The notes below the pieces were generated by a model, which had not been told where the DNA came from, did no database searches, and was given only the letters and a program-made list of their open reading frames with translations. From NCBI RefSeq assembly GCF_006345805.1, contig NW_021833213.1, positions 1 through 28,298 of the forward strand: a DNA stretch of 28,298 nucleotides, given 5' to 3'. This stretch comes from Octopus sinensis (lineage: Eukaryota). Shown piece after piece: positions 885 to 3,028 of this stretch (its first letter is position 1; every line of letters begins with the position of its first letter). Made by a program: the position numbers and the translations under genes.

Positions 885-3028
885 TTAATTATTTCCAATT
901 CCATTACCCTTGACAGCCTTCTTTCCACCGGTGGCCAACTTCTTGGAATGTCCATCGGGAATAGCAATGAGAATACACTCTCTACACATCTAGTATACCG
1001 TTTATAACTTGTCATTTCCATCACATATAAAATAGCCCTTTTTCATAATTTGCAATATCTCTCCTTTCTTCACTTCTCTCAATGCACTCTCACCCATATA
1101 CTCTACCACTTTCACAGAATCTCTATTCACATATTCCTTAAAGTCCCCATCTGTGGGAATACAATCCACGGTTATTATGTCGTCATAAAAGTAACATTTC
1201 ACCGGAATTGTACTTCTTCGACCAATCCACGTCACACGGACAGTATTTTTATAATCCTTTAAAATAAAACATCAAAAATTATTAATCCCGCTAAATATAT
1301 TAAAATAATTTGAATAAAAATATTTAAAAACTTACAGTATCATCCAATTTAGGTTCAACAGTGATGAATACTTGGTCACTATCAGCATTTCTAATATATG
1401 AAAATATAACCAATACTGGTTTATTCCGGTGACAATACAGTTGCCGTAGTTGAGAAGAGTTACTTTCTCTCCAATTTGAAGTGAAGACACATCTACTCTC
1501 TCGACATACATTTCCTTCTCATATGAAACTGATTTTGTCCCAACATTAATATTCTAATATTTATTAAAATATACGTGGTTAACATTTTTTATATAAAATA
1601 TTTATAAAATGTAAGAAAATAGTTATAGTGGGACACTTACGGTGGGGTGTTTATTCACTGTTTTTTTACACTCTTCCAATGAATCAATGACCATTAAGAC
1701 CAAATTGTCATTAACCATGGCTGTATATCTTGCGGATACTGGGTCAATCACCTGCCATGGCCACCAGTCACTACCTTTCTGTTCAAAGCCCATAGCTTCT
1801 CCCATCCCATCATAACATTGGCAGAAGAAGACCCCTTAAATGCTTATTATCGCAAAGAACTTGAGCTGTTATAAAGTCCCGTAGACCTTCCAATGTCAAC
1901 CCACGCCGGAATATCCCACGAATAGTCGGGAAGCGTGGATCATCCCTATAAATTACGAGAAGGTAATTCAACCATCCATCAACTACATTTTGTTCCACAA
2001 ACCACGTCAACTTTCTCTTTGACATGACAGTCCTCTTAAACGCAACTTTGCCATACTCATATAAATACGGCACACGTAAACCTAATATTCCCAAATTAAT
2101 AATTTATAATAAAAATATAAATAAAAAAACAATAAATAAAAATATAAATAGAAAAGAATAAACCAAATTGGGTCAAAATCCAGTTGTATTGCTCATCCCT
2201 GTCTCTATATTCAGTAGTTCTTAAAGCATGTGTAACTCCTTCTATACTATCAACAATAGGACATGCAAAGTCATAGGTGGGATATACTCTAAAATAGAAG
2301 AATAGGACTATACTTGTATTTAAGTCCTGTACGTACATGGGGATCATCTTTGTAACGATAGAGAGTGGGATCTCTCATGCATCCATTTAAATGTTTCATA
2401 TCTATTTTGGCCCTTACACACATAAGACTAGCCCCATTTTCACCATTCAACATGTTTTCCCACATCAACAAGTTATGTTCTACCGCTAAATGTATTAAAA
2501 TATATTAATTTAGTAAATAATACAATTATTTCTCCTTTTGCTATCAATCTTCTTAATTCTTTCAGTCTTCATTAATTCTGGAGGTGTATCATCCACATAG
2601 GCCAGTCCCATACGAATCAGTTTAGTACACATTTCAATGAGGGTGCCAAAATGGTCAGAAGTATGACTCAAAATATCAAAGTCAACTCCAAGAACCTTCA
2701 AGTCTTCTAAAATAACCTGATTTATAAATAAATATTTTCTACTTTCTCAAAAAAAGAGTCTTCTTTTGAAGGATTTGTATCATCAAAGCGCATTATCATT
2801 TTTCCGTCGTATTTGTTTCGATAAAACAAGTTTAGTAGGGCAGCTTTGGCGTGACCAATGTGGAGGTAACTTAAAATGAATTATTTATGATTTTACCCAG
2901 ATGCTTCAGGCGGGAACCGGACTATTACTTCTTTATTGATTGCATTTGGTAGGTCAACAAAATGGCCTATATCTTTACGTTTATTTTGCTAGTTATTTAT
3001 TATTAAATTGGTTCACCACGTCAGTCAT
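885..3028 (-). CDS. EPRS1: Cytosolic glutamyl-tRNA synthetase, stand-alone (ERS domain only), 14 exons, about 530 aa
   Basis: Spliced by hand with 13 GT-AG introns and no frameshift needed: [51 protein letters not shown]..|[79 protein letters not shown] motif at ~2851-2865, MSKR at ~2014-2025, ATG at 3028, TAA at 885-887. Confidence 0.95.

Follow-up and report, generated by a model that had tools for sequence, protein, structure and literature searches.

A stand-alone GluRS gene with tiny introns

The stretch of DNA analysed here (the window) is the whole 28,298-nt contig C9684 of an assembly of 2.72 Gb in 13,516 contigs, and its genes are of a tiny-intron type set in this 2.7-Gb animal assembly. 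The minus strand carries, from position 3028 down to 885, an open frame of 540 codons in 14 exons (Table 1). All 13 introns have GT-AG borders and are 23-87 nt long, with a median of 27 nt. A last intron of 19 nt was also considered and was discarded because such a splice shifts the frame. A gene finder trained on the GluRS and ProRS genes returned the identical model save for a first donor 3 nt earlier, which makes a product of 539 aa possible; with the GluRS gene in the training set, this is no independent test of the model. Both transcript ends are predictions from sequence.

Table 1. Features of the window around and beyond the GluRS gene. Host lengths are those of exons of the fused EPRS gene on host chromosome C11.
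Feature	Position	Strand	Description
Stand-alone cytosolic GluRS gene	885..3028	-	14 exons, 540 codons, without GST-like, WHEP or ProRS parts
Exon 1	3017..3028	-	ATG and three codons; alternative donor 3 nt earlier; in-frame stop four codons upstream
Exon 2	2897..2988	-	RFPPE; 92 nt, host exon 86 nt
Exon 3	2743..2869	-	HIGH, RFDDTN; 127 nt, host length
Exon 4	2524..2716	-	193 nt, host length
Exon 5	2314..2485	-	172 nt, host length
Exon 6	2164..2288	-	125 nt, host length
Exon 7	1973..2081	-	KMSKS-equivalent loop; 109 nt, host length
Exon 8	1861..1945	-	85 nt, host length
Exon 9	1775..1834	-	60 nt, host length
Exon 10	1641..1751	-	Anticodon-binding domain begins; 111 nt, host length
Exon 11	1417..1553	-	137 nt, host length
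Exon 12	1336..1390	-	55 nt, host length
Exon 13	1009..1256	-	Second anticodon-binding subdomain, PF20974-like; a host intron position lies inside
Exon 14	885..981	-	IPDG domain end, 17-residue Lys/Gly-rich tail, stop
AATAAA, candidate polyadenylation signal	835..840	-	About 45 nt beyond the stop
Repeated-element fragment	3154..3657	+	125 nt upstream of the GluRS start; relatives near the ProRS gene and elsewhere
Unrelated upstream tiny-intron gene	4590..6833	-	3′ end approximate; limits the space for GST exons
5S rRNA gene	10303..10421	-	100.6 bits
Tiny-intron gene	12173..13275	+	Resembles prenyltransferase beta subunit (by eye)
Tiny-intron gene	15602..16658	-	Resembles multi-RRM protein (by eye)

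The original prediction placed the catalytic RFPPE motif about 25 residues after the ATG and the stop about 17 residues after the IPDGHSKK end of the anticodon-binding domain. In the model, RFPPE starts at residue 28 (27 residues precede it), HIGH at 38 and IPDG at 516, and exactly 17 residues separate IPDGHSKK from the stop codon. The spliced product matches a profile of the GluRS part of animal EPRS with an E-value of 5e-222. It contains the catalytic Rossmann-fold domain (PF00749) with RFPPE, HIGH, RFDDTN and KMSKS-type motifs, as well as a GlnRS-type beta-barrel anticodon-binding domain. Judged by these features, the gene is a real, intact, stand-alone eukaryotic cytosolic GluRS of class Ib. 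With every catalytic motif intact, the enzyme is expected to charge tRNA(Glu) normally.

Source organism of the contig

The 18S copies in the assembly are GC-rich ones of 2.6 kb and a single one of 1,667 nt on contig C1618. The latter fits the dicyemid primers given in supplement rows of PMC6778094, F3 at 20 of 22 and R2 at 23 of 23 positions, a comparison of the primer sites. Each of the nine host 18S loci has at least seven mismatches to F3 and likewise to R2. Repeats with 92-97% identity are common to the window, to contig C1618 and to contig C12467, which carries the ProRS gene described below; none occurs in 160 kb of host DNA. Since the 1,667-nt 18S of this repeat-sharing genome fits dicyemid primers, the organism is most likely a dicyemid sequenced together with its host, and not a cnidarian. 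Genes on such tiny-intron contigs are the parasite's and are not to be taken for host genes.

Intron medians of 27 nt (GluRS gene) and 25.5 nt are dicyemid-like, the median intron of Dicyema being 27 nt (PMC6543705). A median of 27 nt alone is not diagnostic for Dicyemida, being true of myxobolid myxozoans too, which are described as the sole other animals with introns so short (PMC13644364). A myxozoan source with introns of equal size was dropped because the C1618 18S matches the dicyemid primers. Dicyemids inhabit cephalopod kidneys (PMC12953835), which makes a cephalopod the probable host. The dicyemid body has about 30 cells, and its genome about 5,000 genes (PMC6736024). Searches of sets of 5.8 billion and 1.84 billion proteins yielded no close dicyemid orthologue; the best identities there were 63% for a conserved exon, 68% for part of a ProRS exon and 54% in a HMMER search. 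With exon 13 as query, nothing was found in the protein collections at E≤1e-5.

The 5′ side and the GST-like domain

Exon 1 lies where the GST-domain exons of an EPRS would end, and intron 1 is at most two codons from a host intron. Upstream of the start there are 125 nt of AT-rich DNA, the repeat fragment on the opposite strand, about 930 nt and the unrelated gene. The fragment, which we take to be a retroelement end, showed no convincing family when compared with Pfam. The unrelated gene is presumably GON4L-like, as judged by eye. The stretch of about 930 nt has a non-coding composition and differs by many substitutions and indels between the two copies of the locus (see below); none of its 77 possible donors leads to a coding-like exon outside the repeat.

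The profile of the EPRS N-terminal GST domain detected nothing in the window, on C12467 or on C10883, the contig with the second copy. The same profile did recognize the eroded domain of a fluke (E 3e-9) and, with 46, 29 and 17 bits, three exons of the host. Profile negatives are weak in a fast-evolving genome, and with that reservation the absence of an upstream GST-domain exon, originally predicted, was borne out. GST_C_3 matches on the small contig C9069 were traced to host-type long-intron genes and were rejected as parasite sequence.

It could be argued that GluRS still has its GST domain, encoded on diverged upstream exons that are set apart by a long first intron full of transposon sequence. 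An exon 1 of only 12 nt, the nearness of intron 1 to a host intron and the repeat fragment at 3154-3657 would fit such an arrangement, and a transposon-filled intron is present in one LysRS copy. There, a 1.85-kb DNA transposon with predicted tiny introns occupies a LysRS intron (L061:846-2688, contig C11053) and is absent from the copy on C126; long introns therefore occur in this tiny-intron genome. Against a hidden domain stand the non-coding and variable stretch between repeat and next gene, the outcome for the 77 donors and the silence of a profile that recognizes host exons and even an eroded fluke domain. We consider a GST domain hidden behind such an intron improbable, and the chance that GST exons were missed upstream of GluRS in any form is small. 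Very probably the domain is truly absent from GluRS.

The 3′ side: no WHEP repeats and no ProRS

A second GluRS copy was found on C10883. It is 98.1% identical over window positions 1-8169, with one residue different, and its contig runs 42 kb beyond the left edge of the window. The order of the prenyltransferase-like and multi-RRM genes relative to GluRS differs between the two contigs.

One concern was that transcripts might splice from a donor near 905 into WHEP or ProRS exons beyond the left edge. No such match was found in the 42-kb continuation on C10883, and ProRS and WHEP matches were absent from the window and from 50 of the 51 kb of C10883. We also followed the donor-acceptor routes out of the last exon, 258 in number and including those from donor 907. 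At most 50 residues are gained, on a route that leaves the window at its left edge and whose frame terminates early in the C10883 copy. This agrees with the claim that positions 1-884 hold no splice-compatible WHEP or ProRS exon.

Matches to the WHEP family (PF00458) were confined to host chromosomes. The helical N-termini of HisRS and GlyRS of the same organism, where WHEP domains are expected, were not scored by WHEP profiles, and this failure is why profile negatives must be regarded as weak here. The loss of WHEP from GluRS and ProRS therefore rests on length: the 17-residue tail of GluRS and the leader of about 19 residues in ProRS are too short for WHEP domains of about 50 aa each. A genome-wide loss of WHEP was rejected, since HisRS and GlyRS retain helical N-termini of the right length. 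These stretches, of about 45 residues in HisRS (L090, L089) and GlyRS (L087), are possibly eroded WHEP domains.

A separate ProRS gene and the fused EPRS of the host

A stand-alone ProRS gene of 530 codons lies on C12467. Its eight introns measure 23-33 nt, and the catalytic part begins after about 19 residues. Its first exon is uncertain, and every alternative is too short for WHEP. No GluRS match occurs within 36 kb around it. When all 16 TIGR00408 candidates were scored, cytosolic ProRS was found in two places, C12467 and host chromosome C11; when all 36 PF00749 candidates were scored, cytosolic GluRS was found in the window, on C10883 and on host C11 only, with no third parasite copy. A mitochondrial GluRS and a separate GlnRS are present elsewhere in the assembly.

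Host C11 carries GST, GluRS, WHEP and ProRS exons in this order on one strand over about 50 kb, so that the host has a normal fused EPRS. No single reading frame in the parasite joins GluRS to ProRS, the former ending with the stop at 885 and the latter lying on another contig. Both linker remnants are rich in Lys and Gly. Taken together, and counting from IPDG, they comprise about 43 residues; the linker of a sponge has 59 and that of a sea slug about 290.

Parasite sequence seems to be incompletely represented in the assembly, and a working fused EPRS might be missing from it, the window gene being a truncated spare or an assembly artefact. We regard this as very improbable. Both GluRS and ProRS are complete and intact, end at domain borders, have their own start and stop and lie among unrelated neighbours. 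Furthermore, GluRS is near-invariant between its two copies, the flanks being variable, and a search for a third copy gave nothing.

Probable descent from an animal EPRS

All 11 alignable GluRS introns are at the position of an intron in the host EPRS and in the same phase, as are six of the seven alignable ProRS introns. In total 17 of 18 positions are common to both, a count made with the host EPRS as reference and without a non-animal control. Ten consecutive GluRS exons have exactly the length of the host exons. Because the intron positions coincide with those of the host EPRS, we infer that the split genes descend from an animal EPRS.

Phylogenetic analysis was performed first with 48 of 121 proteins and then with 26 sequences, a sampling with no unicellular holozoan. 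GluRS grouped with animals, apart from fungi, an alga and two further sequences, with an ultrafast bootstrap value of 100, and a grouping with fungi was rejected (p-AU 0.013). A position as sister to all other animals was not rejected (p-AU 0.73), and the placement within animals is not settled by the tree. The p-AU of 0.73 comes from the first AU test, which was uninformative because it asked no more than whether GluRS could be sister to other animals; the tree so constrained was 17.7 log-likelihood units above the quick free tree. The phylogeny called for by the original prediction supports an animal origin.

A position just outside animals, which this single-gene tree allows, raises the question of whether GluRS and ProRS had never been fused in this organism, which would then be a unicellular animal relative or a fungus-like parasite. 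Introns below 30 nt are also known from microsporidia and ciliates (PMC13644364). The rejected fungal grouping, the 17 of 18 introns at host positions (again without a non-animal control) and the match to dicyemid primers all speak against it, and such an origin is hardly credible. The original claim of an EPRS fission with loss of both interaction modules is matched by the separate ProRS on C12467 and by introns that fit an animal EPRS. We are highly confident of a fission and of an animal origin of the GluRS.

Components of the multi-synthetase complex

Gene models for components of the complex were built with a small purpose-built gene finder and checked by eye. There are two copies of MetRS, in each of which about 26 residues precede the catalytic motif; the protein has neither the GST domain nor a C-terminal WHEP. 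AIMP1, the leucine zipper of ArgRS and the N-terminal domain of GlnRS are all present, the first two shortened at the front. The AIMP1 gene lies on C8318, and its product starts near residue 50 of the host protein; exon 1 encodes 23 residues, and the leader alignment was equalled by 4 of 2000 shuffles. ArgRS retains the rear zipper segment alone, with a possible extra exon of about 15 residues. The front helices lost from AIMP1 and ArgRS are, we assume, the AIMP2-binding ones. IleRS is long (about 1,165 aa predicted).

The genome-wide search that had been proposed recovered ProRS and AIMP1, as reported above. AIMP2 was found on a host chromosome only, and AIMP3 was not identified anywhere in the assembly, the host included. 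These negatives are weak, because cytosolic AspRS and cytosolic LeuRS were missed on tiny-intron contigs too: of the 15 cytosolic synthetase activities sought, 13 have a candidate there, and AspRS, LeuRS and eEF1B-gamma, all with host copies, do not. P5CS, which leads from glutamate to proline, was found on a host chromosome only, under a stricter search. The likeliest reason for the missing AspRS, LeuRS, eEF1B-gamma and P5CS is a gap in the assembly or in the search, and the same may hold for AIMP2 and AIMP3.

Several further sequences were met in this survey. On host C10, two AIMP1-like sequences lie side by side at 50,079,000-50,085,000; one is intact and free of introns, the other is interrupted. 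Extra copies on C12599, C9340, C8845 and C8697 comprise damaged-looking GlnRS duplicates, a second divergent LysRS and a second HisRS. Contig C8703 carries on its minus strand, at 233,298-234,666 (L091:1299-2667), an organelle-type TyrRS gene with two small predicted introns, next to a ribosomal protein gene with tiny introns. The first exon of the TyrRS gene has an E-value of 1e-28 against bacterial TyrRS structures and of only 1e-5 against human mitochondrial TyrRS, and is 44-50% identical to proteins of uncultured Eubacteriales and Patescibacteria; the gene is a candidate for horizontal replacement of the mitochondrial enzyme.

The suggestion that the multi-synthetase complex was dismantled stood in part. 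A MetRS without its GST domain is in line with it; the retained AIMP1, rear ArgRS zipper and GlnRS N-domain are not. On balance we think that the GST core of the complex is gone, and that the complex as a whole is probably reduced rather than shown to be gone.

Alternatively, the fission could be real and the complex rewired, a divergent AIMP2-like scaffold gathering most synthetases and GluRS docking by another surface. The C. elegans complex exists without p18, p43 or the GST domain of MetRS, and according to the review that describes it sequence alone is no predictor of assembly (PMC4394549). AIMP1, the zipper remnant, the GlnRS N-domain and a long IleRS are all retained in the parasite, and essential genes were missed by the searches, so AIMP2 could be too. 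Nevertheless, C. elegans GluRS attaches through its GST domain (PMC4394549), which is absent here, two of the four members of the GST tetramer are without that domain and AIMP1 has lost its first 50 or so residues. A rewired complex seems to us rather unlikely, yet it is the strongest of the alternatives.

Proposed course of events

The explanation that we favour, and hold to be somewhat probable as a whole, is that an animal EPRS was split into bare GluRS and ProRS halves and that the complex was left with at most a small ArgRS-GlnRS-AIMP1 unit. Loss of the WHEP repeats would have come first, with a short linker rich in Lys and Gly staying behind, as in flukes. The gene would then have been cut by a stop and a poly(A) signal arising behind GluRS and by a new start ahead of ProRS, and the halves would have moved apart. 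Finally, the GST domains of GluRS and MetRS would have disappeared, together with the front helices of AIMP1 and ArgRS. GluRS and MetRS would thereby have been released, with no more than the small unit of three remaining. The order of these steps is inferred.

We suggest, as a tentative proposal only, that dicyemids would be the first case among animals in which the EPRS fusion has been reversed and the entire GST/AIMP2 core lost, with nothing kept but a trimmed ArgRS-GlnRS-AIMP1 trio. If so, the retained helices, cut back to the segments that hold the trio, would constitute a natural deletion series, and the large complex would be dispensable for animal translation.

As to the question of why animals joined GluRS to ProRS and maintain a large synthetase complex, studies of cell lines suggest functions of the complex outside translation (PMC8053116). 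A second, independent animal lineage, reduced in cell and gene number, that does without the fusion, without WHEP repeats and without the GST domains of both synthetases favours the idea that such additions have a regulatory role and are not needed for protein synthesis. The parasite enzymes may also serve as minimal natural proteins for binding tests.

Comparison with known systems

The fusion is said to be retained in 'nearly all animals' (PMC7960942). In published dicyemid genome work (PMC6736024, PMC6543705) no mention of these enzymes was found. A provisional look at the literature found no dicyemid fission and no other fission outside nematodes; surveys of the fusion may list more. Eswarappa 2018 and Ray 2011 are reportedly such surveys. 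Among the sequences collected here, proteins P0186, P0227 and P0234 are animal-type EPRS of about 1,100 aa without GST and WHEP and still fused. Protein P0259 is a GluRS of 1,044 aa with WHEP-like repeats N-terminal of a GST-like region, by eye, and without ProRS. An annotated ProRS of Aphelenchoides bicaudatus (P0180, 512 aa) has no WHEP and suggests a split outside Rhabditina, if that model is complete.

In Schistosoma, the body louse and the pea aphid, EPRS has lost its WHEP repeats without fission (PMC4072531). The Schistosoma enzyme resembles the present case in being that of a parasite without WHEP repeats and with a short charged linker left. In contrast to the genes described here, the proteins of all three are still fused, and flukes keep a GST remnant.

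The GST tetramer of the human complex has the order MRS-AIMP3-EPRS-AIMP2 (PMC8216282). A further part of the human complex is the ArgRS-GlnRS-AIMP1 subcomplex (PMC8053116, PMC4394549), of which AIMP1, the ArgRS zipper and the GlnRS N-domain have counterparts in the parasite. The differences are that GluRS and MetRS of the parasite are without GST, that AIMP1 and ArgRS lack part of their front ends and that AIMP2 and AIMP3 were not found on its contigs.

The closest comparison is with nematodes, cited in the original prediction as a known fission case; fission of EPRS is indeed described for Rhabditina, with ears-1 and pars-1 of C. elegans (PMC4072531, PMC4394549). There, as here, GluRS and ProRS are encoded separately and go back to a fused EPRS, no GST domain is present in MetRS and p18 is not recognised. 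The C. elegans complex is held by a p38 only 16% identical to the human one (PMC4394549), and GluRS, unlike that of the parasite, has a GST domain and WHEP repeats and is part of the complex; ProRS carries one WHEP. In the parasite neither end carries an appended domain, and AIMP1, in a shortened form, has a gene of its own and is not fused to MetRS. Because the lineages are unrelated, the fission described here is very likely independent of the nematode one. The split enzymes are also more stripped than in the nematode case.
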